Shown piece by piece: positions 1,250-21,017 of a DNA stretch of 32,000 nt (the stretch's first letter is position 1; each line of letters begins with the position of its first letter). Source of the stretch: Planctomycetales bacterium (GTDB lineage: Bacteria > 4484-113 > JAFGCY01); contig CP060262.1 of assembly GCA_022646745.1 (NCBI GenBank), forward strand, positions 180,001 through 212,000. Reading direction: 5' to 3'. The position numbers were made by a program, and so were the translations under genes. The notes beneath the pieces are model-generated. The model was not told the origin of the DNA and made no database searches. It worked only from the letters and a program-made list of their open reading frames with translations.

Positions 1250-3058
1250 CTAGTTGTACTTGCGGCCCCAACCCTCAGCGTTGACACCGTGCATCTCCAT
1301 GATGAACTTTGTCACGTAGGGGAAGTAAGGGGGCGCCTTGCCGGTCTGGAAGCGGTCGTCATAGGTGAAGTCCCACTCGTAGCCGGTCTTGTGGCCGTTG
1401 CTGTAGTACACGCCGGTGGTCTGGTTGCGGTTCTCGATCAGGCCGCCAGTCAGCTGCAACTTGCCCTTGTTCGGATAGTTGTAGACGTAGTTGTTGCCCT
1501 GGATGATGCCCTCGGCGCCGAGGCCGTGGTCATTGCTGACCGCCATCATAGAAGCATCGATGTTCAGGTTGTTCGGGCCATCCTGGCGCAGCATGATGTT
1601 GCCGCCTGCGCTGAAGATGCCGAGGATGTTGTCAGCATCCGGGTTGTCAGCCGGGTCAACCGCATAGGTGATGTGGCCGCCGATCTTGATGTCGCCGGTC
1701 GCACTGACCGTGATCTCGGAACCGGCCGCGATGTCCGGGCTGTTAACACTGCCATCGCCGGTCAGGTTGAGGATGCTGCCATTCACGTGGATCATGCCGT
1801 TCATCAGCTGCCCAATGGTCTTGACGAGCGTGCCGTTCTTCCAGATCTCAGTCTGGCCGGTGGCCGGGCTCTCACGGAACTTCCAGTTGTTGGTGCCGCC
1901 GAACAGGCCGGTGCCAGCCATTGAGATCTCCGTGACCTGGGCCGTGCCGTCGGTGGACAGCCTGATTGTGTTGGCATCACCGTTGATGAAGATGCCGCCG
2001 AGCAGGGAGTCACCGCGGTTGTAGTCCGGACAGAAGTAGCAGCCCTTGTCCAGCAGGCCCGGCAGGCCGGTCAGCCCGAGGATGTCAATGTACTCGGCAA
2101 GGCTGGGCTGGGTGCCGAGGTCGATGTTGGCGTAGTCACCCATCGCGGCGCGCAGCTGGGACCAGCCGTTGCTGGGCAGGTCGATCTGGTCGACACCCCA
2201 TGTGGCGCCTTCGTTGAACTGCGGGTTGGCGCCACCGGCGAGGATGGACTCCTCGTAGCTGCCCTGCACTGCGGTGAAGGCCCCGTTGAAGGTCGGCTCC
2301 CCGTAGAAGGCGGCAACGCCTTCGCCATCACCCGCGTTGACATGCACCGGGCCGTCATAGACCTCGCCGTCGAAGAACCACAGCTGGTCATTGAACTGGT
2401 TCTGCATGGTCTGCGTGAAGTAGCCGTAGGTGGCGAAGTTCGGGCGCTTCACCTCCAGCTCGAAATTGCCGTTCTCGACTCGCGTGGCCTGGTTGTGCTG
2501 GTTGTTAAGGTCCGCCGCGCCCTCGCTGGTAACGCTCCAGTCATAGTGGAAGACGTGCTTCTTGGAGGCATCGCTGGCGGCCGGGCGCTCGACCTCGGTC
2601 GGCCAGATGTTGACCATCGTGTTGTAACCGACTGTCGGTGCCTGCACGCCGCTCGCGGGCTCCTCCAGCGTGACGGAAGTGGTGATCTGGTTACGCGGCA
2701 TCACGTCATCGATGTTCTCGCCGGTGTCCATGATGAGCGAGATGTCCTGGTTGCCACTCGGGTTCTCCGCCTCGGCATCCTGGGCATACTCCTCAACGTC
2801 ACCCGGTGTGGTGGCGGTCGGCATGTTCCAGGCCGACAGGGCATCTGACAGCACGCGCCGGCTGTGCACCAGGCCGGAATCGGCGGCCTGGAAAGCCTTC
2901 TTGTTGCGCGTGTGGTCATGCACCAGCTCAGCGTCAACCATTGTCAGGGACAGGGTTGCCGTGAACAGGATGGTGAGCAGCAGCGATACCATGATCGCGA
3001 GGATCGAGGTGGATCCCTTCCTGCTCAAGCGCTTGTCATGCCATTCCATAGTTCTCAT
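1250..3058 (-). CDS. Large (602 aa) PilX-N / GspK-position pseudopilin-like protein, possible pilus tip adhesin
   Basis: ORF track, ATG start with GGGAG about 8 nt upstream. The N-terminus SRKG-STSILAIMVSLLLTILFTATL is pilin-like and hydrophobic but has no acidic residue at +5, as in GspK/PilX. It is fourth in a pseudopilin operon. The C-terminal half is G/N/T/I-rich and periodic (GGIFINGDANTIRL, IHVNGSILNLTGDG, ITVSATGDIKIGGHITY), which suggests a beta-helix. Confidence 0.6.
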   Translation of the reverse strand: MRTMEWHDKRLSRKGSTSILAIMVSLLLTILFTATLSLTMVDAELVHDHTRNKKAFQAADSGLVHSRRVLSDALSAWNMPTATTPGDVEEYAQDAEAENPSGNQDISLIMDTGENIDDVMPRNQITTSVTLEEPASGVQAPTVGYNTMVNIWPTEVERPAASDASKKHVFHYDWSVTSEGAADLNNQHNQATRVENGNFELEVKRPNFATYGYFTQTMQNQFNDQLWFFDGEVYDGPVHVNAGDGEGVAAFYGEPTFNGAFTAVQGSYEESILAGGANPQFNEGATWGVDQIDLPSNGWSQLRAAMGDYANIDLGTQPSLAEYIDILGLTGLPGLLDKGCYFCPDYNRGDSLLGGIFINGDANTIRLSTDGTAQVTEISMAGTGLFGGTNNWKFRESPATGQTEIWKNGTLVKTIGQLMNGMIHVNGSILNLTGDGSVNSPDIAAGSEITVSATGDIKIGGHITYAVDPADNPDADNILGIFSAGGNIMLRQDGPNNLNIDASMMAVSNDHGLGAEGIIQGNNYVYNYPNKGKLQLTGGLIENRNQTTGVYYSNGHKTGYEWDFTYDDRFQTGKAPPYFPYVTKFIMEMHGVNAEGWGRKYN

Positions 3059-3086
3059 TTTCCGCTCCCGTCCAATTACCGGACGT

Positions 3087-3692
3087 TCAGTTCATCCTGC
3101 GGTTACGGATGGTCATCCGTCCGACCATCGCCTGCCCGCCGACCCTGCCGCCGGTGAAGGCAGTCTGGTCATTGCTCACATCCATCGTCATCTTCATTTC
3201 CACGGCCGTGATCGCATCCTCGTCAGCCGGCGCTTCATTGTTGTTGGCGTAGTAGATGAACTGGATGCTGCCAAGGTTGTCCATCATCACGTCGGTGCCG
3301 ATGTTTGTCCACGTGGCACCGTCGTCCGAGCTCTGGTCCAGCTCGCGGATCAGCTCCTGGGCATCCGCATCATAGTAGTAATGGATGCGCTCCCAGACGT
3401 CGTCATTGTTCAGGTCGCCGACATACATCAGTTCCTGCGGCTCGGCGATCTCGACGAAGGGTTCAACCACGCCGGAGCCCATCGTGACGATCTCGTCAGA
3501 CATGTATGAGATGCAGTCGCGCAGGTCAGCCTGGTTGAGCATGTTGCGGTTCTGGGTGGTGCTGAGCATGATCTGGCTCTGCATCACGGTCACGATCGTA
3601 CCGCCGACGATGGCAGCGATCACCAGTGAGACCAGCAGCTCAATCAGGCTGTAGCCCTGCCTCTCCATGTTGCGGGTGCGGATCATGCTCAT
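3087..3692 (-). CDS. Prepilin-type minor pseudopilin, PilW/GspJ-like by size and position
   Basis: The leader MSMIRTRNMERQG is followed by YSLIELLVSLVIAAIVGG (G-1, aromatic +1, Glu +5). 201 aa. The ATG overlaps the upstream stop as ATGA (3689-3692). Confidence 0.65.
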   Translation of the reverse strand: MSMIRTRNMERQGYSLIELLVSLVIAAIVGGTIVTVMQSQIMLSTTQNRNMLNQADLRDCISYMSDEIVTMGSGVVEPFVEIAEPQELMYVGDLNNDDVWERIHYYYDADAQELIRELDQSSDDGATWTNIGTDVMMDNLGSIQFIYYANNNEAPADEDAITAVEMKMTMDVSNDQTAFTGGRVGGQAMVGRMTIRNRRMN

Positions 3693-4105
3693 GGTGCCAC
3701 CACCCCGGTCAGGTCAAAGCTTGCCGTCTGGCCCATGCGGTCCCATGTCACGACCACGGTCACTTCCTTCATGCCATCGTCGGGGGCATCCTCAACCACG
3801 GTCCAGGAACGGCTGTATATCCCGCCGGCTTCTCCAAGCTCGTTGATGGTACCGTTGTCAGCACCGTTAACCACCTGGTCGAAGTCAATGTTGCGCAGTT
3901 CCTCGATCTTGACCTCCGCCAGATTGGCGGCGGAGGAGACGTACATGTTGGACTGGGTGACGCGGCTGGCCGCAATTGACACCTGCAGCCCGAACATCAG
4001 CGCCAGCGCCAGAAGCACCAGCCCGATCAGCACGTCCACGAGGCTGAAGCCGCGGTTGCGTCCGCGCAACGTGAGTCCACGCAATGCCTTTAATATCCTC
4101 TTCAT
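3689..4105 (-). CDS. Prepilin-type minor pseudopilin, PilV/GspI-like by size and position
   Basis: The leader ...LRGRNRG is followed by FSLVDVLIGLVLLALALMF, with Asp rather than Glu at +5. 138 aa. ATGA overlap with the upstream gene at 4102-4105. Confidence 0.65.
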   Translation of the reverse strand: MKRILKALRGLTLRGRNRGFSLVDVLIGLVLLALALMFGLQVSIAASRVTQSNMYVSSAANLAEVKIEELRNIDFDQVVNGADNGTINELGEAGGIYSRSWTVVEDAPDDGMKEVTVVVTWDRMGQTASFDLTGVVAP

Positions 4106-4611
4106 CGGAGATTGCCTCCCTCCCTGCTGAACCGGCCCGTCGTCAGGTTGCCGTTCAGTTCCAGGGTCTCTCCATTGCTTGCCGTCAGCTCAATCTTGCC
4201 GCCCACGAGCATCGAGCCGCGGGTCGTGTACTGGACCTGGTTGCTGGGGAAGGTGTTCGCGGAGATTGTCACGCCCTGTGGCAGGGTCTCCACCCCGCCG
4301 CCCGGCATGGCGTTCGACCAGTCCAGCGTGTCGCGGTCCTGGGCCTCTATCCAGTATGTTCCGGCACCAGCATCAAGCAGCACCCGGGTGTTCATTTCCT
4401 CGCTGCGTGCCTGGTTGCGTGCGATCATCATCACTTCAGCCATGCGCAGCTGTGCGGTTTCCAGCCTGGTATGCGGAATGGCGGAGTACAGGTTGGAGAT
4501 GGCGATGGTGGCAACAATGCCAAGAATTGCCAACACGATAACCATCTCGATCAGCGAGAAGCCCTCGCGGTTTCGCAGTCCCCTCTTCCTGTTGCGCGTT
4601 TCAGTATTCAA
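4102..4611 (-). CDS. Prepilin-type pseudopilin, GspH/FimT(FimU)-like, first gene of the operon
   Basis: MNTETRNRKRGLRNREG followed by FSLIEMVIVLAILGIVATIAISNLY is the canonical N-methylation motif. 169 aa. The start codon at 4611 is TTG, and no in-frame ATG or GTG lies between the upstream stop and the motif. AAGGCGG sits about 8 nt upstream. Confidence 0.75.
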   Translation of the reverse strand: MNTETRNRKRGLRNREGFSLIEMVIVLAILGIVATIAISNLYSAIPHTRLETAQLRMAEVMMIARNQARSEEMNTRVLLDAGAGTYWIEAQDRDTLDWSNAMPGGGVETLPQGVTISANTFPSNQVQYTTRGSMLVGGKIELTASNGETLELNGNLTTGRFSREGGNLR

Positions 4612-5824: not shown

Positions 5825-6532
5825 TTATTCGTCGCCCATACCGTCATCTTCATCGTCACCGCTGCCGCCGGCGACGCCACGGCTCGGCGGGGAACCACCC
5901 TTCTTGCCGCCCTTGCTGTCGCCGCCGCCGCCGCCCTGGGACTCTTCAACGGAGAGGCCTTCGCCCTCGGTGCGGCGGACCTGGAAGCTGATCGGCTGGC
6001 TGGTGCAGTAGAAACCGCTGAGCGCGATGATCTTCGGATAGGAGGACGGGATGGTCAGGTGCTTCTTGGTCTCACCGACAACCTCGCCGGCCTCATCAAA
6101 GGCCTTGATCTCCCAGATGCTGGGGGTCGGGACTTCCTCATCGCTCTGCACTTCGAGGCGGACCTCATACTTGGCTGCCCCTTCGTACTCGGGGATGCCG
6201 TTGTCCACGCTCTCGATGGTGATTTCCACCTTGGGCCCGGTGTAGTCGTCAACCGGCTCGCCGCAGGGGTTCTCTCCGCAGGGGTTCGCACCACAGGGAT
6301 TCCCACCGTCGGCACCCTTCAGCAGTGCGGCATTATCGCCGGCCGCCCCACGGGCCAGTCCGGCATCCGCCGCTGCGTCACCGCCCGCCGGAGTGCTCGG
6401 GGCACTCTTGGGCTTGTAGTCACGCAGCATCGCCTCGGCGGGATCCTCTCCCTGGTTGCAGCCCGCGGAGAACAGCAGCAGGCCAAGCAGTGCCGGGATG
6501 ACTAAGAGCAGGTTGTTGGTCTGATTTCTCAT
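5825..6532 (-). CDS. Secreted lipoprotein of unknown function with an internal NPCG repeat and a Gly/Asp-rich tail
   Basis: ATG with GGAGGA 7-8 nt upstream. Signal peptide plus relaxed lipobox LLLFSAG-C. Motif GNPCGANPCGENPCGE. C-terminus GGGGGDSKGGKKGG...GDDEDDGMGDE. Confidence 0.75.
   Translation of the reverse strand: MRNQTNNLLLVIPALLGLLLFSAGCNQGEDPAEAMLRDYKPKSAPSTPAGGDAAADAGLARGAAGDNAALLKGADGGNPCGANPCGENPCGEPVDDYTGPKVEITIESVDNGIPEYEGAAKYEVRLEVQSDEEVPTPSIWEIKAFDEAGEVVGETKKHLTIPSSYPKIIALSGFYCTSQPISFQVRRTEGEGLSVEESQGGGGGDSKGGKKGGSPPSRGVAGGSGDDEDDGMGDE
6257..6310 (-). repeat. Short 15-bp coding repeat (about 3 units) encoding NPCG[A/E]
   Basis: The plus strand reads ctcgccgca GGGGTTCTCTCCGCA GGGGTTCGCACCACA GGGATTCCCACCGTC. 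The first full unit is identical to units of the 16454-16663 array. Confidence 0.8.
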
Positions 6533-9991: not shown

Positions 9992-10142
9992 CACACAAGC
10001 CTCGTTTCTTTGGATGGCCCCGCGGGGCAGCACCAATGATAACAGTCGGGGCATGGCGGATTGAACAAAGTGCAGGCCGGACACGACTGAGCTGCCAAGC
10101 CCGGACCGCTGGAACCAGCCTCCGGCCCGGCAAGGAGTTGAA

Positions 10143-10958
10143 ATGAAGAGAAACGCGATCATGATTGCGGTTTCCGTGCTTTGTGCAGTGCTGCTGGCCA
10201 GTGGCTGCGACAAGGCTTCCAAGGCAGGCGAAAGCGCTGACAGCAACACCCCGCAGACGATCCCGGCCAGCGAGCAACACGGCAGTGCTGCCAGCAGCGA
10301 AGGACATGAGCATGCGGATGCTGACGGGCATCACATGGATATGCATGGCGACATGGACCATGGCACGGACGTGACCAAGAGCACCTCACCTGCGGTCGGC
10401 AGCCCCTACGCGCTGGCAAGCTGTCCGGTGTCCGGGGAGGAACTCGGGTCAATGGGCGATCCGATCCACTACAACTACCAGGGCCGTGACATTGAGTTCT
10501 GCTGCCAGAGCTGCGTGCCGAAGTTCGAGGCCGACCCGGCGAAGTACATCGCCGAGATCGACGCGAGGATGATCGAGCAGCAGATGGCGGACTACCCGCT
10601 GGACAGCTGCCCCGTCACCGGCGACAAGCTTGGTGCCGAGGGCGAGACGGTGGACATCATCTTTGACAACCGGCTGGTGCGCTTCTGCTGCGCCGACTGC
10701 GTGAAGGACTTCAAGGCCGACCCGGCAAAGTACCTGTCGAAGATCGATGAGGCTCTGATTGCCAGCCAGTCCGCCAGCTACCCGCTGGACAAGTGCGTGG
10801 TGACGGGAGACGCACTCGGCGAGGATGGCGACAGGATCAACTATGTCGTCGGTTCCACGCTGATCGAGCTGTGCTGCGAGGACTGCAAGCACGACGTTGC
10901 CGCCAACCCGGCCAAGTACCTTGAGATGGTGCACAAGGCCCGCGGCGACCAGGCCTAG
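10143..10958 (+). CDS. Lipoprotein with a His/Met/Asp-rich stretch and three tandem YHS/TRASH-like modules (putative periplasmic copper-binding protein)
   Basis: AAGGAG lies 7 nt upstream of the ATG. Lipobox LLASG-C. GHEHADADGHHMDMHGDMDHG at aa 53-74. Three ~60-aa repeats follow the pattern YPLxxCPVxGxxLGxxG...FCCxxCxxxFxADPAKY (Cys at 94/120/121/124, 156/182/183/186, 218/244/245/248). Confidence 0.7.
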   Translation: MKRNAIMIAVSVLCAVLLASGCDKASKAGESADSNTPQTIPASEQHGSAASSEGHEHADADGHHMDMHGDMDHGTDVTKSTSPAVGSPYALASCPVSGEELGSMGDPIHYNYQGRDIEFCCQSCVPKFEADPAKYIAEIDARMIEQQMADYPLDSCPVTGDKLGAEGETVDIIFDNRLVRFCCADCVKDFKADPAKYLSKIDEALIASQSASYPLDKCVVTGDALGEDGDRINYVVGSTLIELCCEDCKHDVAANPAKYLEMVHKARGDQA

Positions 10959-10990
10959 CCAATTCGCAACAAGATTCCCCTACATTGCCA

Positions 10991-11016
10991 GACGCGGGTC
11001 CCACGGGGCCCGCGTC
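10991..11016. terminator. GC-rich hairpin between the convergent lipoprotein gene and copA
   Basis: GACGCGGG-tcccacgggg-CCCGCGTC, followed by ctgcgTTTcc. The U-tract is weak. Confidence 0.5.
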
Positions 11017-11029
11017 CTGCGTTTCCGGC

Positions 11030-13558
11030 TCAGCGCTCCGACCTGGCTGAGCGCAGGCGCAGGGCATTGCCGATCACGCTCACGGATGACAGGGCCATGG
11101 CGGCACTGGCCACCATCGGGTTCAGCAGGTGCCCGGTCAGCGGCAGCAGCAGCCCGGCGGCCAGTGGCACTCCGAGCGAGTTGTAGATGAAGGCCAGGAA
11201 CAGGTTCTGGCGGATGTTGCCAACGATGTCACGGCTCAGCCTGCGTGCGCGGATGATGCCGTCGAGGTTGCCACGCACAAGCGTGATGCCACTGGACTGG
11301 ATGGCGATGTCCGTGCCGGTGCCCATTGCGATGCCGACCTCGGCCTGGGCCAGCGCGGCGGCATCGTTGATGCCGTCACCGGCCATCGCCACGGACAGTC
11401 CCTGCTGCTGCAGCTGCGTGACCTTGGCATGCTTGTCCTCCGGCATGACCTCAGCAAACACCTCGTCGATGCCCAGCTGCGATGCCACGGCCTGGGCGGT
11501 GGAGCTGTTGTCACCGGTGAGCAGCATGATGCGCAGGCCGTCGGCGCGCAGGGCGCGGATCGCTTCCGCAGCCCCCTCACGGACCGGGTCGGTGATGCCC
11601 AGCAGGCCCAGCAGGCGCCCGCCGCTGGCCACGTAGACAACCGTATGCGCTGATTGCTGCAGCCCATGGGCCACGTCGTCAAGCTCCGTGCCTTCGATGG
11701 ACTGTGATTCCATCAGGCGGCGGTTGCCAAGCGAGACCGGCTCGCCGCCCAGGCGGCCGCGCACTCCCTTGCCGGTGACGGACTCGAAGTCCTGCAGGCC
11801 GGATGAGTCAATATTGCGCTCCCGGCAATAATCCAGCACAGCCTGCGCCAGCGGATGTTCGCTGCCAGCCTCCAGGGCAGCTGCCACCCGCAGCAGCCTG
11901 GCTTCCTCAACACCATCGACCAGCTTTACGGCGCGCACGGCGGGCCGGCCCTCGGTCAGCGTGCCGGTCTTGTCAACCAGCAGCACGTCCACCGCAGCCA
12001 TCCGTTCCAGCGCTTCGGCGTCGCTGACCAGCACACCCTCACGGGCTCCGCGGCCCATGCCGACCATCACCGACATCGGCGTTGCCAGTCCGAGTGCGCA
12101 GGGGCAGGCGATGATCAGCACGGCGATCGCGCAGAATATCGCCAGGTCAATGCGCTGATAGTACAGCCACCAGACAAGGTATGAGAGCACGGCGACGGCC
12201 ATCACGGCAGGTACGAACCAGGCACTGACCCGGTCGGCGAGGTTCTGCAGCGGTGCGCGGCTGCGCTGGGCCTGCTGCACCATAGAGACGATGCGCGCGA
12301 GCATCGTGTCAGAGCCGACCCTGGTGGCTTCAATCACCAGGCCGCCGCGGCCATTGACTGTCCCGGCGCTGACCAGCTCACCGGGCTGCTTCTGCACAGC
12401 CAGCGGCTCACCGCTGAGCATTGATTCATCAACGCTGCTGCTGCCCTCGCGCACCTCGCCATCAACCGGCACCTTCTCGCCGGGCCGTACCCGCAGCCTG
12501 TCACCGACCTGTACCTCCTCCAGCGGCACTTCCTGCTCACCGCCCTCAGTGATGCGCAGCGCCGAGGGAGGAGCGAGGTCCAGCAGCGCGCGGATGGCGG
12601 ACCCGGTGCTGGCCCGGGCACGGGCCTCCAGCACCTGGCCGAGCAGCACGAGTGCGCTGATCACGGCCGCGCTTTCGAAATAGACGGAGGGCAATCCGCC
12701 CATGAATGCATTGTCAGGCAGGGTCTGCGGGAACAGCAGGGCGTAGAGCGAGTAGAGCCAGGCGGTGCTGACACCGATCATGATCAGGCTCCACATGTTC
12801 AGGCTGCGGTTGGCGAATGAGGCCCAGCCGCGGCTGAAGAACATCGCGCCGCTCCAGAAGACAACGGGCGTGGTCAGGGCAAGCTGGATCCACAGGCCGC
12901 TCATGCCGAGCTTCATCGCCAGGCCGTGGTGCATGCTGACAACTATCAGGGGCACGCTCAGCACGGTGGCAACGATGAAGCGCAGCAGCAGAGCACGGTA
13001 GGCCTGCTGCTCATGCTGGTCGGACTCGGCGCTGGCCTCCATCGGCTCCAGGTCCATGCCACACTTGGGACATGAACCGGGTTTGTCGCGAATGATTTCC
13101 GGATGCATCGGGCAGGTCCACTTGCCCTTGTATGACGTGCTGGCAGGCTTGCCGGCAGCGGCCTGGGCATGCCCAGCATGGCCGGAGTGCCTGCCGTGGA
13201 TGTACGTGTACGGTTCAGCATCGAACTTCTGCTTGCAGCCTGCGCTGCAGAAGTGGTAGTCCTTCCCTTCAAAGTGGCTGTGGTGCTGAGTGGCCTGCGG
13301 ATCGACGTCCATCCCACATACCAGGTCCTTAACCCTGGCCGGCATCGCAGCAGGCTCAGCCCCGTGGCCTGAATGGCCTGCATGTCCGCCATGCATGTAT
13401 CTGTGTGGATCAGCATCGAACTTCCGCTTGCAGCCAGCGCTGCAGAAGTGATAGTCCTCACCATCCACGCTCGTATGGTGCTGCGACTTGTGTGGGTCGA
13501 CGTCCATCCCGCAGACAGGATCCTTCACGTTTGTGATGTCTGTCATCTCATCCTGCAT
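11030..13558 (-). CDS. copA: Copper-translocating P1B-type ATPase with two YHS/TRASH domains and an HMBD at the N-terminus
   Basis: Motifs [37 protein letters not shown], the YN in FIYNSLGVP and MALSSVSV together give a Cu(I)-type P1B-1 signature. The N-terminus has DPVCGMDV...[19 protein letters not shown] twice, plus [22 protein letters not shown]. The track start at 13585 is TTG. I prefer ATG 13558 (MQDEM...), and ATG 13546 is also possible. Confidence 0.9.
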
Positions 13559-13670
13559 TGTTATTGGTATCCATGTAAATGACAATTAGCCTGATTGGAA
13601 CTGCGGGCAGCCCAGCGGATGCCGGCCCCACAGTGGAATACTGCTGATACTCAAAGTAGAATGTATATGG

Positions 13671-16055
13671 TTGGACACGGATCAGAAAACCCATGGCGGT
13701 GAGCACGGGGCGGGAGGCGATTCCCATCTCCACCTGAGTTTTGAGCGAAGTCTCGGCCTGTTCGATGCCACGATGCTCGGACTGGGCGTGATGCTCGGAG
13801 CCGGCGTGTTCGTGCTGGTGGGCGTGGCTGCCGAAATGAGCGGCCCGGCGGCGATCCTGGTGTTCGCCCTGAACGCGATCGTGACCATGTTCACGGCCTA
13901 CTCCTACATGGAGCTGTCCAGCGCCATCCCGGAGGCCGGAGGCGGCTTCAGCTACATTTCCAAGGCCTTCCCGCCCTGGGTCAGCTTCATCGCCGGCTGG
14001 ATGCTGTGGATGGCGATCGTGATCTCCTGCGCCCTGTTCTCGATGGGCTTTGGCGGCTATCTCTGGGAACTGGTGCACCTCTACCTGCCCGGCGTGTATG
14101 AATATGGCAACGAGCTGCTTTCCTTCTGGAAGGATGGGCCGGACATCCTGATGTCCGTGCTGGTCTGCCTCGGCTTCGTGCTGATCAACATCAAGGGCGC
14201 GGACGTGACCGGCAAGGCGGAGAACTGGCTGACGATCGGCAAACTGGCCACACTGGCAGTCTTCCTGCTGTTTGGTGCACTTTCAATCACAAAGCATCCG
14301 CAGGTCGCCATGCAGTCACTGGAACCCTTCCTGACGAATGGCCCGCTCAGCATCCTGATGGCGATGGGTGTGACCTTCATCGCGTTCGGTGGTTATGACC
14401 TGATCGCGGCGATGGCTGAGGAAGTGCATGAACCGAGGAAGACCATCCCGCGTGCAATCTGGCTGTCCTTCCTGGTCTCAAGCATAGCGAGAGTTGTCAT
14501 CGTGGCGATAGTGATCACCTGCCTGCCGGTGATTGACGGCGAACCGGGCTGGAAGCTGATCAGCATGCACGGCAAGACCGGCCTCGTGAAGGCCAGCCAG
14601 TACATCATGTCGCCGGCCTGGGTGTTCATCGTAGCGCTCGGCGGACTGATGGCAACCACCGGTGCGCTGAACGCCGCACTGCTGGCCGGCAGCCGTGTGT
14701 CCTATACGATGGGGCGGCGGCGAATGCTGCCATCGCTGTTCACGATCCTGCATTCCAGCAACCGCACGCCCTGGATGGCGATCGCGATCACCGGTGCGCT
14801 GACGGCGACCTTCTGCGTACTGTTTGATGTGAAGACGGTTGGCAGCGCCGCGAGCGTGATGTTCCTGTTCGTGTTCGCGCTGGCCAATGCCTCGCTGCTG
14901 GCGTTGCGCCGGCGCAGCAATTACCGGCCGCTGTACAAGGTGCCGCTCTACCCGCTGTTCCCGTTGCTCGGAGTGCTGACCTGCCTCGGGCTGGCCATCG
15001 GACAGTTCATGATGCCGCACACCGGCGCCGTGGATGTGGCGGTGACCTTTGGTTGGATCGTGCTAGGCCTGCTGGCCTTCTTCCTCTACTTCCGCCACCG
15101 GATGGACCCGGAGGAGGTCAAGGTGGCGATCCCCGACATCGATGCGCGCACCCTGCGCGGGCTGGAGCCGCGCTACCGCATCATGGTGCCCTGCCACAAC
15201 CCGCGCAACGTGCCATCACTGATCCGGCTGGCCGCCCGGCTGGCCCAGCCCTACGGTGACAACGCCGAGATCGTCGGAGTGACGGTGGCCGAGGTTCCGG
15301 TGCAGCTGGAGGTGCACCAGGGGATGGAGATCATCGCCGAGTATGAGGAGCTGCTGCACCGCGCTGAAGCCGTTGCCAGGGAACTTGACGTGCGCTTCCG
15401 GGCTGAGCTGCGGCTGGCCCACAACACTGCCAAGGCGATCACGCAGCTGGCCCGGCTGGAGCGTGTGGACCTGCTTGTGCTTGGCTGGAAGGGCTACGAG
15501 ACGCGCACCGAGGCGATCTTCGGCAGCCTGATTGACGACATCATCGAGAACGCGCCCTGCGACCTGCTGCTGGCGAAGATCACGCATGACTTCCACCCGC
15601 CCTTCGACCGCGTGCTGCTGACAACGGCAGGCCAGGAGAATGACATGATGGCGGCGCGCCTGACGGCGGAGCTGGTGAATGACGACGCCAAGGTCACGAT
15701 CTGCACGGTGACCAAGCCCGATGCCGGCAGCGACAAGATCCAGCGTGCCAGCAAGCGCCTGCTGCAGACCCGCGAGGCCTTTGAACAGGTCGGCGGACCA
15801 GAGATCGAGCTGGAGGAACGGATCCTCAGCGGCCGCGACATCCCGGGGGCGATCATTGACGAAGCCTGGGAGAGCCGCAGCGAGGTGATCATGGTCGGCG
15901 CGAAGGATGAAAGCTACTTCCGCCACGTGTTCGTTGGCTACGTGCCGGAGCGGCTGGCGCTGATGAGCGACCATCCGGTGATGCTCTACAAGCGCCACAG
16001 CGGGCCGCGCACCGTGCTCAGCCGCCTGCTCGGACCGCGCGCCCCGCGTGACTGA
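13671..16055 (+). CDS. APC-superfamily amino acid permease fused to two C-terminal universal stress protein (Usp) domains
   Basis: 794 aa. N-terminus SLGLFDATMLGLGVMLGAGVFVLVG plus about 12 hydrophobic segments. C-terminal Usp1 is YRIMVPCHNPRN...LGWKGYETRTEAIFGSLIDDI and Usp2 is FDRVLLTTAG...VGAKDESYFRHVFVGYVPERL. The start at 13671 is TTG and is uncertain. Confidence 0.8.
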   Translation: MDTDQKTHGGEHGAGGDSHLHLSFERSLGLFDATMLGLGVMLGAGVFVLVGVAAEMSGPAAILVFALNAIVTMFTAYSYMELSSAIPEAGGGFSYISKAFPPWVSFIAGWMLWMAIVISCALFSMGFGGYLWELVHLYLPGVYEYGNELLSFWKDGPDILMSVLVCLGFVLINIKGADVTGKAENWLTIGKLATLAVFLLFGALSITKHPQVAMQSLEPFLTNGPLSILMAMGVTFIAFGGYDLIAAMAEEVHEPRKTIPRAIWLSFLVSSIARVVIVAIVITCLPVIDGEPGWKLISMHGKTGLVKASQYIMSPAWVFIVALGGLMATTGALNAALLAGSRVSYTMGRRRMLPSLFTILHSSNRTPWMAIAITGALTATFCVLFDVKTVGSAASVMFLFVFALANASLLALRRRSNYRPLYKVPLYPLFPLLGVLTCLGLAIGQFMMPHTGAVDVAVTFGWIVLGLLAFFLYFRHRMDPEEVKVAIPDIDARTLRGLEPRYRIMVPCHNPRNVPSLIRLAARLAQPYGDNAEIVGVTVAEVPVQLEVHQGMEIIAEYEELLHRAEAVARELDVRFRAELRLAHNTAKAITQLARLERVDLLVLGWKGYETRTEAIFGSLIDDIIENAPCDLLLAKITHDFHPPFDRVLLTTAGQENDMMAARLTAELVNDDAKVTICTVTKPDAGSDKIQRASKRLLQTREAFEQVGGPEIELEERILSGRDIPGAIIDEAWESRSEVIMVGAKDESYFRHVFVGYVPERLALMSDHPVMLYKRHSGPRTVLSRLLGPRAPRD

Positions 16056-16283: not shown

Positions 16284-16382
16284 CTCCGTACTCCCTTACT
16301 GGATCTGACAACAGCATGTTAACCGCGCCGGATGGCCACTGACAGGGCCACCGCAGCCTCTGTTCAGGAGTGACACTGGCGC

Positions 16383-16411
16383 AAAAAAAACCGGCGGGAC
16401 AAGCCCGCCGG
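16383..16411 (-). terminator. Rho-independent terminator of the binding-protein gene
   Basis: The minus strand reads CCGGCGGG-cttgt-CCCGCCGG-TTTTTTTT, about 30 nt after the stop at 16442. Confidence 0.85.
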
Positions 16412-16441
16412 TGGTTCAATTCGGTTCTTACTGACTGTGGA

Positions 16442-17917
16442 TCAGTGTCCGCAGGGGTTCTCGCCACAGGGGTTCTCACCGCAAGGGTTGTCACCACAGG
16501 GGTTCTCTCCGCACGGGTTGTCTCCACACGGATTCTCACCACAGGGGTTCTCTCCGCACGGGTTGTCTCCACACGGATTCTCACCACAGGGGTTCTCGCC
16601 ACACGGGTTTTCCGCACAGGGGTTGTCTCCACAGGGGTTGTCAGCGCAGGGGTTGGCATCCGCTTCAGCGGATCCACCCTCGGGCTCGAAGGTGTAGACC
16701 CACTTGAAGCTGCCGTCACCGGTGATCTCCAGCACGACCAGCTTCTTCTCGGCATTGTGCTGGGCGTTGATGGTCACGCTGCCGGCCGCGCCCTTGAAGT
16801 CCTTCAGGTTGGACATCGCCGTCACGAAGGCTTCCTTGTCAATGCTGCCGGCATCCTCATAGGCCTGCTTGACGGCGTAGACCGCGTCGTAAGCCAGGAT
16901 CGCCATCGCATCGGGGGTCTTGCCGCCGTTGCGCGCCTTGTAGCCCTTGACGAAGTTCTGCACCGCGGGGTCCTGGTCGTCAGCGGCGTAGTGGTTCGTG
17001 AAGTAGCTGCCGACGATGCTCTGCTGGGCGATGTCGAACAAGTCCGGGCTGTCGAAGCCGTCGCCGCCGAGCAGGGGCTGCTCGAGGCCGACTTCACGGG
17101 CCTGGTTGGCAATCAGGGCCACCTTGTCATAGTAACCGGGCACGATCAGCACGTCGAAGTCCTGGCTCTTGAAGCGGTTGAGCTTGGAGCGGAAGTCCGT
17201 CTCGGTGCTGGCGAGGAAGCTGTCCTCGCTCACGATCTCGACGCCGAGCTCCGGGGCCACGGCCTTGATGCGGTCGCGGATGCCGACGGAGTAATCACTG
17301 TCAGCATCGTAGAAGATCACGGCGCGTGAAGCGGCGATCGGGCCGTCCGGCAGCGCGGCGAAGGTGATCATGCGCTCCGCCTGGAAGTCATCGGTGAAGC
17401 AGGTACGGAAGATGTACTTGCGCACGCTGCCATCCTCATTGAGGGTCAGCGTGGTCTTGGTGCTGGCCGGGGTCACCATCGGGGTGTTGTTGTCCTCCGC
17501 CACCTTGGCGATTGCCAGCGAGTTGGAGCTGGCCACCGCGCCGATGATCACGTCCACCTTGTCCTGGCTGCAGTGCTTGGCAGCCACCTTGGCGGCCTCG
17601 TCGGTCTTGGAGGCGTTGTCATCCCAGATGGCCTCGATCTGGCGACCGAGGATACCGCCGGCTGCGTTGATCTCGTCCACCGCCATCAGCGCGCCGCTGT
17701 GGCTGGATGTGCCGAAGGACGCGATCGGGCCGGTTTCCTCGAAGTTGAAGCCGATCTTGACCGGGCCTTCCTCACCCCCGCCGCCGGCACCGCTGGTGCC
17801 GCCACCGGTGTTGCCACCGCCGGAAGTACCGCCGCCGCTGTCATCGGCGGGATTGCAGCCTGCGAGCGCTAGCAGCAGCAGGCCGAGTAACAATAGAAAT
17901 GCTGAACCCTGACGCAT
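16442..17917 (-). CDS. LivJ/Peripla_BP_6-type ABC substrate-binding lipoprotein (branched-chain/amino-acid type) with a C-terminal NPCG[E/D] repeat tail
   Basis: Lipobox LLLALAG-C and Gly-rich linker SGGGTSGGGNTGGGTSGAGGGG. Core PVKIGFNFEETGPIASFG...DEINAAGGILGRQIE...VDVIIGAV...TPMVTPASTK is typical of the LivJ family. The track start at 17926 is GTG. ATG 17917 has GAGGAG upstream and is preferred. Confidence 0.85.
   Translation of the reverse strand: MRQGSAFLLLLGLLLLALAGCNPADDSGGGTSGGGNTGGGTSGAGGGGEEGPVKIGFNFEETGPIASFGTSSHSGALMAVDEINAAGGILGRQIEAIWDDNASKTDEAAKVAAKHCSQDKVDVIIGAVASSNSLAIAKVAEDNNTPMVTPASTKTTLTLNEDGSVRKYIFRTCFTDDFQAERMITFAALPDGPIAASRAVIFYDADSDYSVGIRDRIKAVAPELGVEIVSEDSFLASTETDFRSKLNRFKSQDFDVLIVPGYYDKVALIANQAREVGLEQPLLGGDGFDSPDLFDIAQQSIVGSYFTNHYAADDQDPAVQNFVKGYKARNGGKTPDAMAILAYDAVYAVKQAYEDAGSIDKEAFVTAMSNLKDFKGAAGSVTINAQHNAEKKLVVLEITGDGSFKWVYTFEPEGGSAEADANPCADNPCGDNPCAENPCGENPCGENPCGDNPCGENPCGENPCGDNPCGENPCGDNPCGENPCGENPCGH
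16454..16663 (-). repeat. 14 tandem 15-bp in-frame units encoding N-P-C-[G/A]-[E/D]
   Basis: The plus strand reads (GGGGTTCTCNCCRCA)-like units at 16454, 16469, ... 16649. Positions 16499-16543 and 16544-16588 are identical 45-mers. All six frames are open here, which explains several spurious track ORFs. Confidence 0.95.
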
Positions 17918-18030
17918 GAACCTCACTCCTCAATCAATGTCCGTGCCACCCATTCTCACCCAGCACGGATCTTGGGGTAGAATGGCTATTCTAGCACTCC
18001 ACCCCGCCCGGGGCCCCGGGAGTGTGACCG

Positions 18031-18117
18031 GCCGGAGTGGCGGAATTGGCAGACGCAGCAGACTCAAAATCTGCCGGGGGTGACCCCGTGGGGGTTCGAG
18101 TCCCCCCTTCGGCACCA
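18031..18117 (+). tRNA. tRNA-Leu (anticodon CAA), class II with a long variable arm, CCA encoded
   Basis: GCCGGAG-TG-GCGGAATTGGCAGACGC-A-GCAGA-CTCAAAA-TCTGC-CGGGGGTGACCCCGTG-GGGGG-TTCGAGT-CCCCC-CTTCGGC-ACCA. The 7-bp acceptor stem has one G-U pair, and the T-loop TTCGAGT is present. Confidence 0.93.
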
Positions 18118-18155
18118 TCGACCCTGATCAGCAAGGCACATGAGATGATGCCTGC

Positions 18156-18584
18156 ATGCAGGACAGACCAGGCATCAGCGCAGTGCTGGAGACCATCCTC
18201 TATGTGGACGACATCGAGGCTGCGCGCGGATTCTACGAGGGATTGCTCGGGCTCAACCCGCATGGGATGCACAGCGAGCTTGGCGTCGGCTACCGGCTGG
18301 ATCGGCAGATGCTGCTGCTGTTCGTGGCGGAGCTGAGCAGCCGGCCGGGGCGGATCGTGCCCAGCCACGGCGCGAGCGGGCCAGGCCATGTGGCATTCAC
18401 GGCCAGCCCGGCGGAGATCGAGCAGTGGAAGCAATACCTGCTTTCCTGCGGCATCGGGATTGAGCAGGACCACCACTGGGACAACGGTGCGCGTTCGATC
18501 TACTTCCGCGATCCGGCAGGTAACTCGCTTGAATTCACCAGCCCGCAACTGTGGGGCCTGGAGCCGGCGGATTCGGGCGAATAG
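18156..18584 (+). CDS. VOC-family (glyoxalase/bleomycin-resistance/dioxygenase) protein
   Basis: 142 aa. ETILYVDDIEAARGFYEGLLGL ... GHVAF ... SIYFRDPAGNSLEF is the typical VOC pattern. Confidence 0.75.
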   Translation: MQDRPGISAVLETILYVDDIEAARGFYEGLLGLNPHGMHSELGVGYRLDRQMLLLFVAELSSRPGRIVPSHGASGPGHVAFTASPAEIEQWKQYLLSCGIGIEQDHHWDNGARSIYFRDPAGNSLEFTSPQLWGLEPADSGE

Positions 18585-18733
18585 CTGGCGAGCATCATCG
18601 CCAACACTGTTGCAGGCCTTATCAACGAGACCAGTTCTCATTTGTGGACAGATTTCCCCGTTTCACGGAAATAACCCGCGATATTGCCAAAAACCTATTC
18701 CAATCCTGCATGCCATCGGCATAGAATTGATTG

Positions 18734-20354: not shown

Positions 20355-20582
20355 CTATTCCGTTTTCCTATCACCGTCGTTCCCGTCTTCCAGCTGGAAC
20401 AGCTCATCCACACTGAGTCCGAAGATGTCTGCCATCCTCATCGCCAGCGTCACCGATGGATCAGCCTTGCCACGTTCCACGGCGTGGATCGTCTGGCGGC
20501 TGACCCCGATGGCCCTTGCGAGCTGCTCCTGGGTCATATCCAGTCGCGCACGATGCATCCGGATGAAATTGACTAATTTCAT
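20355..20582 (-). CDS. XRE/Cro-CI family helix-turn-helix transcriptional regulator
   Basis: 75 aa. [56 protein letters not shown] is the canonical HTH_3 pattern. Confidence 0.85.
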
Positions 20583-20774: not shown

Positions 20775-21017
20775 CACAGAGCTCAACAGAATCCCTCAGA
20801 GATCCACAGAGGAAATGCCCAGGGACAATTCCGCTGCCAAGAACCCTGCGTCCCTGCGACTCTGCGTTCCATAAATCGGGGCATGCGTCCTCGCTGTTAT
20901 CACGCGCATGAGTACGTGGCCCTGCATTGTTCAACACAGAGGCACAGAGATCACAGAGAATACGTATCCAGGGAAAAGAGCCGCCAGATCCTCTGTGGAA
21001 CTCTGAGGATCTCTGTG
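20775..21017. repeat. Cluster of CACAGAG / CTCTGTG heptamers with an 18-bp inverted repeat pair
   Basis: CACAGAG occurs at 20775, 20805, 20935, 20943 and 20952, and CTCTGTG at 20991 and 21011. CTCAGAGATCCACAGAGG (20795-20812) matches the reverse complement of 20990-21007 at 17 of 18 positions. Non-coding, lower GC. Confidence 0.8.

Follow-up and report, generated by a model that had tools for sequence, protein, structure and literature searches.

A tandem Asn-Pro-Cys repeat tail on a LivJ-type lipoprotein, tentatively read as a soft-metal-binding arm

We describe a 494-residue LivJ-type lipoprotein whose gene lies in a 32,000-nt stretch of DNA from a Planctomycetales bacterium (assembly GCA_022646745.1, contig CP060262.1, forward-strand positions 180,001 to 212,000; hereafter the window, within which all coordinates are numbered), and whose C-terminus consists of 14 tandem N-P-C-[G/A]-[E/D/H] pentapeptides (the NPC tail). 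The tail follows a complete periplasmic binding fold and, at a confidence somewhat short of even, we propose that it is an exported, intrinsically disordered, membrane-tethered arm rich in thiols and carboxylates that would act as a multivalent ligand for soft metals. Exported five-residue Cys repeats are a recently recognised kind of sequence; what is new here is the distinct motif, a candidate partner protein that occurs in other lineages (DUF6969) and the unusual host, an orphan LivJ-type lipoprotein.

Results and discussion

A complete binding-protein fold followed by 14 NPC units

The gene (16442..17926, minus strand), as defined by its open reading frame (ORF), its translation and a match to the Pfam family Peripla_BP_6 (PF13458), is monocistronic and encodes a LivJ/Peripla_BP_6 substrate-binding protein that is extended by the repeat tail. 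Its product begins with a signal peptide and lipobox (residues 1-24, 17855..17926, minus strand; ...LLALAG-C24) that were read from the sequence; AlphaFold2 models residues 7-21 as helical. A Gly/Ser/Thr-rich tether (residues 25-54, 17765..17854, minus strand), with predicted local distance difference test (pLDDT) values of 44-54, leads from the putative lipid anchor to a type I periplasmic binding fold (residues 55-405, 16712..17764, minus strand). The Pfam profile is matched over residues 55-405 at positions 1-342 of 343 (E = 6e-65), its score of 220.5 bits against a gathering cutoff of 31.7 places the protein among the type I periplasmic binding proteins, and the AlphaFold2 model, built from a 52-sequence alignment, has pLDDT values above 90 over residues ~51-415. 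A short acidic spacer (…FEPEGGSAEADA; 16655..16711, minus strand), which in alignments coincides with the beginning of the orthologues' low-complexity tails, then connects the fold to the array of 14 tandem 15-nt units (residues 425-494, 16445..16654, minus strand). The C-terminus reads ...EADANPCADNPCGDNPCAENPCGENPCGENPCGDNPCGENPCGENPCGDNPCGENPCGDNPCGENPCGENPCGH*, where the last unit is NPCGH-COOH and the stop codon occupies 16442-16444. Because the profile is matched at positions 1-342 of 343, the NPC tail comes after a complete binding-protein fold, as had been claimed in a first-pass annotation of this DNA; the 14 Cys pentapeptides reported there are likewise present, although that annotation had placed them at 16454-16663, a shift of 9 nt.

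The tail contains 13 consecutive C-x4-C spacings and is 20% Cys. AlphaFold2 assigns residues 420-494 pLDDT values of 37-56 and no secondary structure, and a PDB sequence search with the tail returned zero matches. A wrong-frame artefact was ruled out, as the frame of the array is continuous with that of the Pfam domain and is kept in orthologues, and the plus-strand ORFs 16370..17329 and 16437..16697 are shadows of the NPC-tailed gene. No ABC permease or ATPase gene adjoins it, its flanks being a tRNA-Leu gene and a convergent gene for an amino-acid permease with universal-stress-protein domains.

Variation of the array and of the orthologous tails

Within the array, N, P and C are unvarying in all 14 units, and the variation in their codons is confined to third positions and is synonymous. 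Pairwise comparison of the 14 units yields 174 synonymous and 77 non-synonymous codon differences, the latter only at the G/A and E/D/H positions. Across loci, 16 of the 16 synonymous encodings of N-P-C are in use, which argues for selection at the level of the peptide rather than the DNA. When the window is translated in six frames, 20 NPC tripeptides are found, as compared to a mean of 3.2 and a maximum of 9 in 200 shuffles, and 17 of the 20 fall inside two arrays, the NPC tail and a shorter one described below. Tandem Repeats Finder reports a period of 15 nt with 13.5 copies (score 210) as well as a 45-nt super-period (score 254), and codon comparison resolves the latter into two identical 45-nt blocks (16505..16594, minus strand), in which the DNA of units 5-7 (16550-16594) equals that of units 8-10 (16505-16549). 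This identity points to a recent 45-nt internal duplication.

The window is ~94% identical to a contig of the metagenome-assembled genome (MAG) 'bacterium isolate UBP7 HKST-UBA01', and ~84% identical and syntenic to 'bacterium AC1.30'. One protein that is 98% identical to the NPC-tailed protein (P0274) is named by NCBI only as an 'ABC transporter substrate-binding protein'. Homologues down to about 50% identity are all lipoproteins, most of which keep the lipobox, and every one of them carries a low-complexity C-terminal tail of 30-80 residues after the same last β-strand; these tails are Pro/Ala/Gly-rich, Asp/Glu-rich or His/Asp/Glu-rich. NPC units are confined to the closest relatives among the homologues, in which they number 14, 8, 8, 6, 6, 4, 4, 1 and 1. 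In the orthologue P0276 the units are interrupted by DEAADEHAGHDHGEGEGHGEGEEHGED, and the orthologues P0289 and P0301, which have no NPC units, end in His/Asp/Glu-rich runs. The restriction of NPC units to the closest relatives, with other low-complexity tails in the remaining homologues, indicates that the NPC tail is, as judged from these alignments, a lineage-specific replacement of a generic disordered tail that grows and shrinks by repeat slippage. The window protein thereby provides a clear case of tandem-repeat evolution, in which a generic disordered tail becomes a chemically specific one and copy number differs among close relatives. A Cys-x-His-COOH ending (NPCGH, NPCAH or NPCDH) was also seen to recur; it is found at 16445-16447 in the window and in P0276, P0279, P0286, L039, L046 and L060.

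The NPC module in other bacteria

One genome per species from 185,579 species was scanned with a degenerate DNA pattern for NPC[GA][EDA]-NPC[GA][EDA]-NPC, and at least 118 stretches matched; the locus counts given below, such as those for DUF6969 neighbours, refer to the 118 matches listed. These come from Alpha-, Beta-, Gamma- and Zetaproteobacteria, Cyanobacteria (Leptolyngbyaceae and others), Gemmatimonadota, Myxococcota, 'Deltaproteobacteria' MAGs and UBP7, and a metagenome scan with the acidic version of the pattern added 9 further loci. Two protein-level searches with the tail were used more sparingly: a word-indexed search yielded 3 small peptides, which serve as leads and not as a census, and a HMMER scan of 1.84 billion representatives yielded 1952 matches, almost all of them Cys-free five-residue low-complexity repeats, which were not used for counts. 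The commonest unit among the loci is NPCAA or NPCAAK, and the acidic NPCG[ED] type to which the window belongs occurs in UBP7, Myxococcota and some delta-type MAGs. Over all units, the spacing from Cys to Cys is mostly 5 residues (843), then 6 (329) and 3 (263), and the residue after Cys is Ala in 77% of units and Gly in 10%. The number of Cys residues per array is even in 69 cases and odd in 86. The lack of a bias toward even numbers argues against fixed intramolecular disulfide pairs, and the disulfide cross-linking that the first-pass annotation had offered as an alternative role thus gains no support in the form of obligatory pairing. In a search of the literature, we found no description of the NPC repeat module.

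Of 107 complete carrier ORFs, 85 pass a strict heuristic for a signal peptide ahead of the first unit, and most of the others visibly have one; among 452 conserved neighbour ORFs that served as a control, 84 pass the same heuristic. The NPC motif is almost confined to exported proteins, and the enrichment in signal-peptide and lipoprotein sequences that had been proposed as a check is therefore present. The motif is also portable, as had been supposed, being carried by many unrelated proteins in several phyla. In one architecture, small proteins of about 60-130 residues consist of only a signal peptide and an array; in the other, arrays are located at the termini of folded periplasmic domains. 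Specifically, arrays lie on both flanks of a SoxA/TsdA-type cytochrome c (haem c) domain and N-terminal to cytochrome P460, YHS, DM13, thioredoxin, cyclophilin, YceI and cupredoxin-like domains, the binding protein in the window exemplifies C-terminal placement on a folded domain, and in some proteins the array occupies the linker from the signal peptide to the domain. The NPC form spans at least five phyla, is found on haem, copper-domain and transport proteins, and is apparently an independent second form of the five-residue Cys-repeat design.

The window itself contains a second carrier, as had also been noted before. This unrelated lipoprotein (235 aa, lipobox FSAGC; 5825..6532, minus strand) has three NPC units in its N-terminal linker (NPCGA NPCGE NPCGE, NPCGANPCGENPCGE; 6257..6301, minus strand). 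It has no match in a Pfam search, and a near-identical copy is present in the UBP7 isolate HKST-UBA01 (L008). Both NPC lipoproteins of the window fit the lipobox pattern [LVI][ASTVI][GAS]C after a hydrophobic segment (LLALAG-C and LLFSAG-C), from which lipidation is predicted.

The NPC tail as a possible soft-metal ligand

In the reading that we tentatively favour, the tail would display one Cys every five residues, each with Asn-Pro before it and a small residue after it, and each thiol is probably presented on an Asx-Pro-type turn formed by the invariant Asn-Pro. The arm would bind soft metal ions in the periplasm, with Cu(I)/Cu(II) as the first candidate and Zn, Cd and metalloids as further possibilities, and the tethered lipoprotein would capture or buffer the ions at the surface of the membrane. 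The tail may then be viewed as a lineage-specific, Cys-based version of the acidic and His-rich C-terminal tails of its orthologues, and as part of a wider, uncharacterised 'NPC' module that would have been grafted onto the termini of exported proteins or secreted as small peptides. If the arrays bind or buffer metals, environmental bacteria would possess a layer of periplasmic metal homeostasis that has so far gone unrecognised.

The support for metal binding is circumstantial and comes from several independent directions. First, orthologues carry His-rich inserts or replacements at the same position of the tail. Second, NPC units are paired with His-rich and acidic runs elsewhere: a paralogous 135-aa lipoprotein of the UBP7 lineage (L039) combines DEHAGHDHAAGEGHDD (DEHAGHDH...GHDD) with 14 NPC units and ends in NPCGH, and a metagenomic lipoprotein (L122) has its NPC units among Met/His/acidic runs and ends in HEGHDH. 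Third, in 8 of 10 stand-alone acidic NPC peptides (P0001, P0002/L128, L057, L071, L095, L119, L126 and L129) an AXA signal-peptidase site is immediately followed by X-[H/S]-H-E, and cleavage at that site would put His at position 3, creating an amino-terminal Cu(II)/Ni(II)-binding (ATCUN) motif. Fourth, YHS, cupredoxin-like and haem proteins occur as fusion partners or neighbours of arrays, ArsR/SmtB-family regulators also lie nearby, and the periplasmic metallo or redox domains among the fusion partners further include DM13, cytochrome P460 and thioredoxin. The near-confinement of the motif to exported proteins and the precedent of published exported Cys-repeat peptides that bind copper point the same way. 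In addition, the predicted disorder of the tail fits a region that might fold on metal binding. The suggestion of metal binding made in the first-pass annotation is therefore plausible on these grounds, and binding itself is unproven.

Several known metal ligands resemble the tail in part. Metallothioneins and phytochelatins are also Cys-rich and probably unstructured without metal, and phytochelatins share its acidic Glu/Cys/Gly chemistry; however, the tail is exported and lipid-anchored rather than cytoplasmic, is gene-encoded, and has a strict five-residue periodicity and an invariant Asn-Pro. Membership in the metallothioneins was rejected, as the tail matches no metallothionein model of Pfam at E values up to 1 and contains no C-x-C, C-C or C-x-x-C, and the pentapeptide-repeat β-helix (A[D/N]LXX) was rejected in the same way on the basis of no Pfam match and no secondary structure predicted by AlphaFold2. 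Some periplasmic proteins bind metals through His-rich or acidic tails and loops, the His-rich loop of ZnuA being one example. Such tails, like the NPC tail, are disordered extensions on a solute-binding protein, and the NPC orthologues have His/Asp/Glu-rich tails at the same position, whereas the NPC tail uses Cys as the ligand in a strict tandem repeat and its host is a cluster-B amino-acid-type, not a metal-type, substrate-binding protein.

Other observations weigh against metal binding. C-x4-C is neither the classical metallothionein spacing nor a CxxC motif and is unusual for metal sites. The partner domains also include cyclophilin, YceI and the amino-acid-type binding protein, which have no metal link, and in the oxidising periplasm the thiols might exist as disulfides or in modified form. 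The tails of more distant orthologues are rich in Pro/Ala/Gly and lack obvious ligand residues, and any low-complexity sequence may therefore be accepted at this position. Finally, proximity to a copper-export module, which had been raised as a possible functional connection, is not informative. This module consists of a His-rich YHS/TRASH lipoprotein gene (271 aa; 10143..10958, plus strand; identified by Pfam, with the His-rich stretch EGHEHADADGHHMDMHGDMDHG and three YHS/TRASH-like units) and the gene for a CopA-like P1B ATPase (11030..13585, minus strand; Pfam), which carries two YHS domains at its N-terminus as well as an HMBD. The ~3.6-kb block that holds both (about 10053-13651) has no counterpart at the syntenic locus L046 of 'bacterium AC1.30', which still retains the NPC-tailed protein, and is by this comparison a lineage-specific indel. 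Its absence there means that proximity is no evidence for a CopA-NPC link, and functional linkage of the tail to CopA, which we considered, was accordingly downgraded.

Relation to MNIO-modified peptides and CefA

Chemically, the closest published systems are exported five-residue Cys-repeat peptides that bind copper (PMC12668002, PMC12452194). The characterised examples, recently recognised as copper handlers (bufferins, oxazolin and captophorins), are all MNIO-dependent, and the exported copper-binding Cys peptides modified by MNIO enzymes comprise captophorins, oxazolins (HvfA), fontiphorin and bufferins (PMC12668002, PMC11252979, PMC12452194, PMC11626156). These peptides share with the NPC module five-residue repeats in which one Cys is followed by a small residue, Sec signal peptides that are sometimes of the lipoprotein type, and the occurrence of some long multi-repeat proteins (PMC12452194, PMC12668002, PMC11252979); a Sec signal peptide and export are predicted for the window protein as well (LAG-C24). 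A connection to copper or metal stress, circumstantial in the case of the NPC module, is a further likeness. Captophorins and oxazolins, as MNIO-PME1 modified peptides, are in addition characterised by the conversion of Cys to 5-thiooxazole. However, the NPC motif is N-P-C-[GA]-x, without Lys in the window, whereas the captophorin/oxazolin motif is of the E-G-K-C-G, Lys-Cys or Cys-Lys type. The partner genes also differ: MNIO and DUF2063 genes accompany captophorins, whereas those NPC arrays that have a conserved partner are accompanied by DUF6969 with or without an FGE-like protein. When the window ORFs were scanned with Pfam, no MNIO (DUF692, MbnB_TglH_ChrH), no DUF2063 partner and no DoxX gene was found. 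The HvfA model NF050188 (cutoff 95 bits) has no match to the NPC tail, and the small peptides P0001 and P0002 score only 19.8-23.8 bits against it, far below that cutoff. With no MNIO linked to it, the NPC tail is not a captophorin, and membership in the captophorin/MNIO group was rejected both for the incompatible motif and because MNIO, DUF2063 and DoxX genes were found neither in the window nor recurrently among the neighbour families listed below.

The only name found for the repeat is that of the NCBIfam model NF038108, 'Cys-every-fifth RiPP peptide CefA' (RiPP, ribosomally synthesised and post-translationally modified peptide), which is the best NCBIfam match of the tail apart from models of substrate-binding proteins; a literature search found no publication behind this label. 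Like the NPC module, CefA has a signal peptide followed by tandem units in which every fifth residue is Cys, and the tail keeps this spacing throughout. At 24.5 bits for the isolated tail and 17 bits for the full-length protein, however, the scores stay under the cutoff of 30 bits, so neither is a member, whereas an Erythrobacter NPC peptide (L067) scores 33.7 bits and passes. The tail differs from CefA-type peptides in that it forms the C-terminus of a folded, monocistronically encoded 494-aa lipoprotein rather than a small stand-alone precursor beside a modifying enzyme, in its acidic NPCG[ED] units in place of NPCAA(K), and in having no candidate modifying enzyme nearby. The first-pass annotation could assign the repeat to no named family, which needs some amending: NF038108 does describe small peptides of this type, and captophorins and oxazolins are published as exported metallophore precursors with five-residue Cys repeats. 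The tail itself falls outside both groups.

DUF6969 and possible modification of the cysteines

Clustering of neighbour ORFs identifies DUF6969 (PF22308) as the dominant partner in other lineages. It adjoins the NPC gene in 37 of the 118 loci listed, whatever the fused domain, and often lies downstream with a gap of 4-60 nt; the loci include L011, L017, L041, L065, L067 and L075 and 31 others (e.g. L067:1299-1964). The protein has no signal peptide and contains an invariant His cluster (H50, H68, H70, E79, H80, H82, H84 and H116). Its AlphaFold2 model is confident (pLDDT 91.6), the best Foldseek hit of this model in the PDB has E = 0.7, and a PDB sequence search also returned no match. DUF6969 carries no NCBIfam name, and a literature search found no paper on it. 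These features make it a candidate new enzyme or metal-handling partner. Among the matches listed, the arrays next to it are all proteobacterial and of the neutral or basic NPCAA(K) type, and never of the acidic NPCG[ED] type. Approached from the DUF6969 side, one of three sampled loci has an NPC-like peptide upstream, one has a homologous peptide without Cys repeats and one has neither. The small secreted peptides upstream of DUF6969 at L133:3698-3997 and L134:3643-3915 have homologous signal peptides; one of the pair has an Ala/Lys-rich tail and has lost its Cys repeats, and the other has NPC-like units. A further cluster, C2_294, described as a '294-aa conserved neighbour', was discarded as an antisense shadow ORF of DUF6969.

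Other neighbours recur as well. FGE-sulfatase-like proteins with a signal peptide are encoded in 14 loci among the matches listed, and monohaem and MtrC-like multihaem cytochromes, YHS-domain proteins, YedE/TsuA-like transporters, rhodanese and an ArsR/SmtB-family regulator domain fused to a methyltransferase are also found repeatedly. MtrC/MtrF-like multihaem cytochrome genes lie directly beside NPC genes in 8 loci of different lineages (L026, L036, L045, L058, L060, L087, L089 and L120), which hints at a link with extracytoplasmic electron transfer. Among the 135 immediate neighbours of the 81 listed loci without DUF6969, no MNIO, DUF2063 or DoxX is recurrent (25 most frequent of 105 matched families).

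These partners raise the alternative, which we consider unlikely, that the cysteines are substrates of a RiPP-like post-translational modification that acts on the whole protein through an enzyme encoded elsewhere, such that a heterocycle, thioamide, sulfinate or formylglycine-like residue would be functional instead of the thiols. In its favour are the CefA label and the passing score of the L067 peptide (33.7 vs 30), the often operon-like position of DUF6969, and the properties of DUF6969 itself, as its His cluster, lack of a signal peptide and confident model without a PDB match fit an uncharacterised metalloenzyme that acts before export. It is also in line with the completion of the operon by FGE-sulfatase-like proteins and c-type cytochromes in the 14 loci noted above, and there is precedent, since MNIO enzymes modify large Sec-exported Cys-repeat proteins (PMC12452194). 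For the window, however, the case is weaker: DUF6969, FGE-like and MNIO genes were found neither in a Pfam scan of the ORFs of the 32-kb window nor in loci L008, L039 and L046, and none of the other partner types seen beside NPC genes elsewhere is present in the window or these three related UBP7/AC1.30 loci. The association of DUF6969 with only the NPCAA(K) type, the NPC-like peptide at just one of the three loci sampled from its side, and the absence of recurrent MNIO, DUF2063 or DoxX neighbours also count against modification. Moreover, FonBC, the one MNIO tested on such repeats, tolerates no Pro at any repeat position (PMC12668002), whereas Pro directly precedes every Cys in the tail. If the arrays are enzyme substrates, DUF6969 would be a candidate new peptide-modifying enzyme.

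A broader scenario, about which we are similarly doubtful, would unite these observations. The NPC arrays would form a widespread, undescribed class of exported Cys repeats whose partners in many Proteobacteria are the cytoplasmic DUF6969 with its novel fold, a periplasmic FGE-like protein and a c-type cytochrome; together they might constitute a new cysteine-modification or metal-loading system for proteins or peptides that is parallel to, and independent of, the MNIO/captophorin system, and UBP7-like lineages would have grafted the module onto lipoproteins, a solute-binding protein among them, as membrane-tethered metal- or redox-active arms.

Redox-carrier and spacer alternatives

The arrays on redox proteins suggest, by analogy, another role, for which we see only a slight chance: the cysteines might pass reversibly through thiol, disulfide and persulfide or thiosulfonate forms, with the tail serving periplasmic redox enzymes as a flexible swinging arm or a redox buffer. 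The model for such an arm is the C-terminal GGCGG of SoxY, a swinging arm with a single Cys. In both cases, a periplasmic protein carries Cys on a flexible arm at its terminus. Elsewhere, SoxA/TsdA-type cytochrome c domains have an NPC array at either end, arrays lie N-terminal to cytochrome P460, thioredoxin and DM13 domains, and the neighbours of arrays include rhodanese, redoxin, multihaem cytochromes and YedE/TsuA-like transporters of thiosulfate or selenium. The window protein, in contrast, is of the LivJ type and has no redox domain, no sox or other sulfur-oxidation genes lie nearby in the window, and an arm with 14 carrier sites, as opposed to the one of SoxY, is without precedent. The distribution of Cys counts (69 even vs 86 odd) again argues against fixed disulfide pairs, and the acidic and His-rich context suits metal ligation better.

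It is just as improbable that the tail is a low-complexity spacer or tether, i.e. an entropic bristle or envelope-anchoring stalk whose chemistry matters little and in which NPC is one of several interchangeable repeats that expand by slippage. The very different compositions of the 30-80-aa tails of all orthologues, the labile copy number (14, 8, 8, 6, 6, 4, 4, 1 and 1) together with the recent 45-nt duplication, the predicted disorder and the arrays in signal peptide-domain linkers of other proteins are all consistent with it, but a mere spacer would drift, whereas N, P and C are strictly invariant in every unit across phyla with synonymous change only, Cys is costly and reactive in an exported linker, the motif makes up the whole mature part of small secreted peptides in which no linker role is possible, and many genomes conserve DUF6969 as a gene partner.

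Other features of the window

Downstream of the NPC-tailed gene, 30 nt past its stop codon, lies an intrinsic-terminator-like hairpin followed by a T-run (16390..16412, minus strand). The convergent gene beyond it (13671-16055, plus strand) encodes an amino-acid permease with two C-terminal universal-stress-protein domains, and this arrangement is kept in 'bacterium AC1.30'. Upstream, the tRNA-Leu gene is located on the opposite strand (18031-18117, plus strand), and a 216-aa ORF in this region (17991..18641, minus strand) is spurious, as it overlies this tRNA-Leu(CAA). Genes at 1250-4611 (minus strand) encode type II secretion/type IV pilin-like pseudopilins (N_methyl, GspH) and a DUF4900 protein, and are unrelated to the NPC tail. 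A gene-poor, lower-GC stretch (20786-21016) contains a 28-nt inverted repeat that is 86% complementary, with arms 175 nt apart, and several short tandem repeats; it has no Rfam match and is adjoined by a gene for a 75-aa XRE-type helix-turn-helix protein (20355..20582, minus strand).

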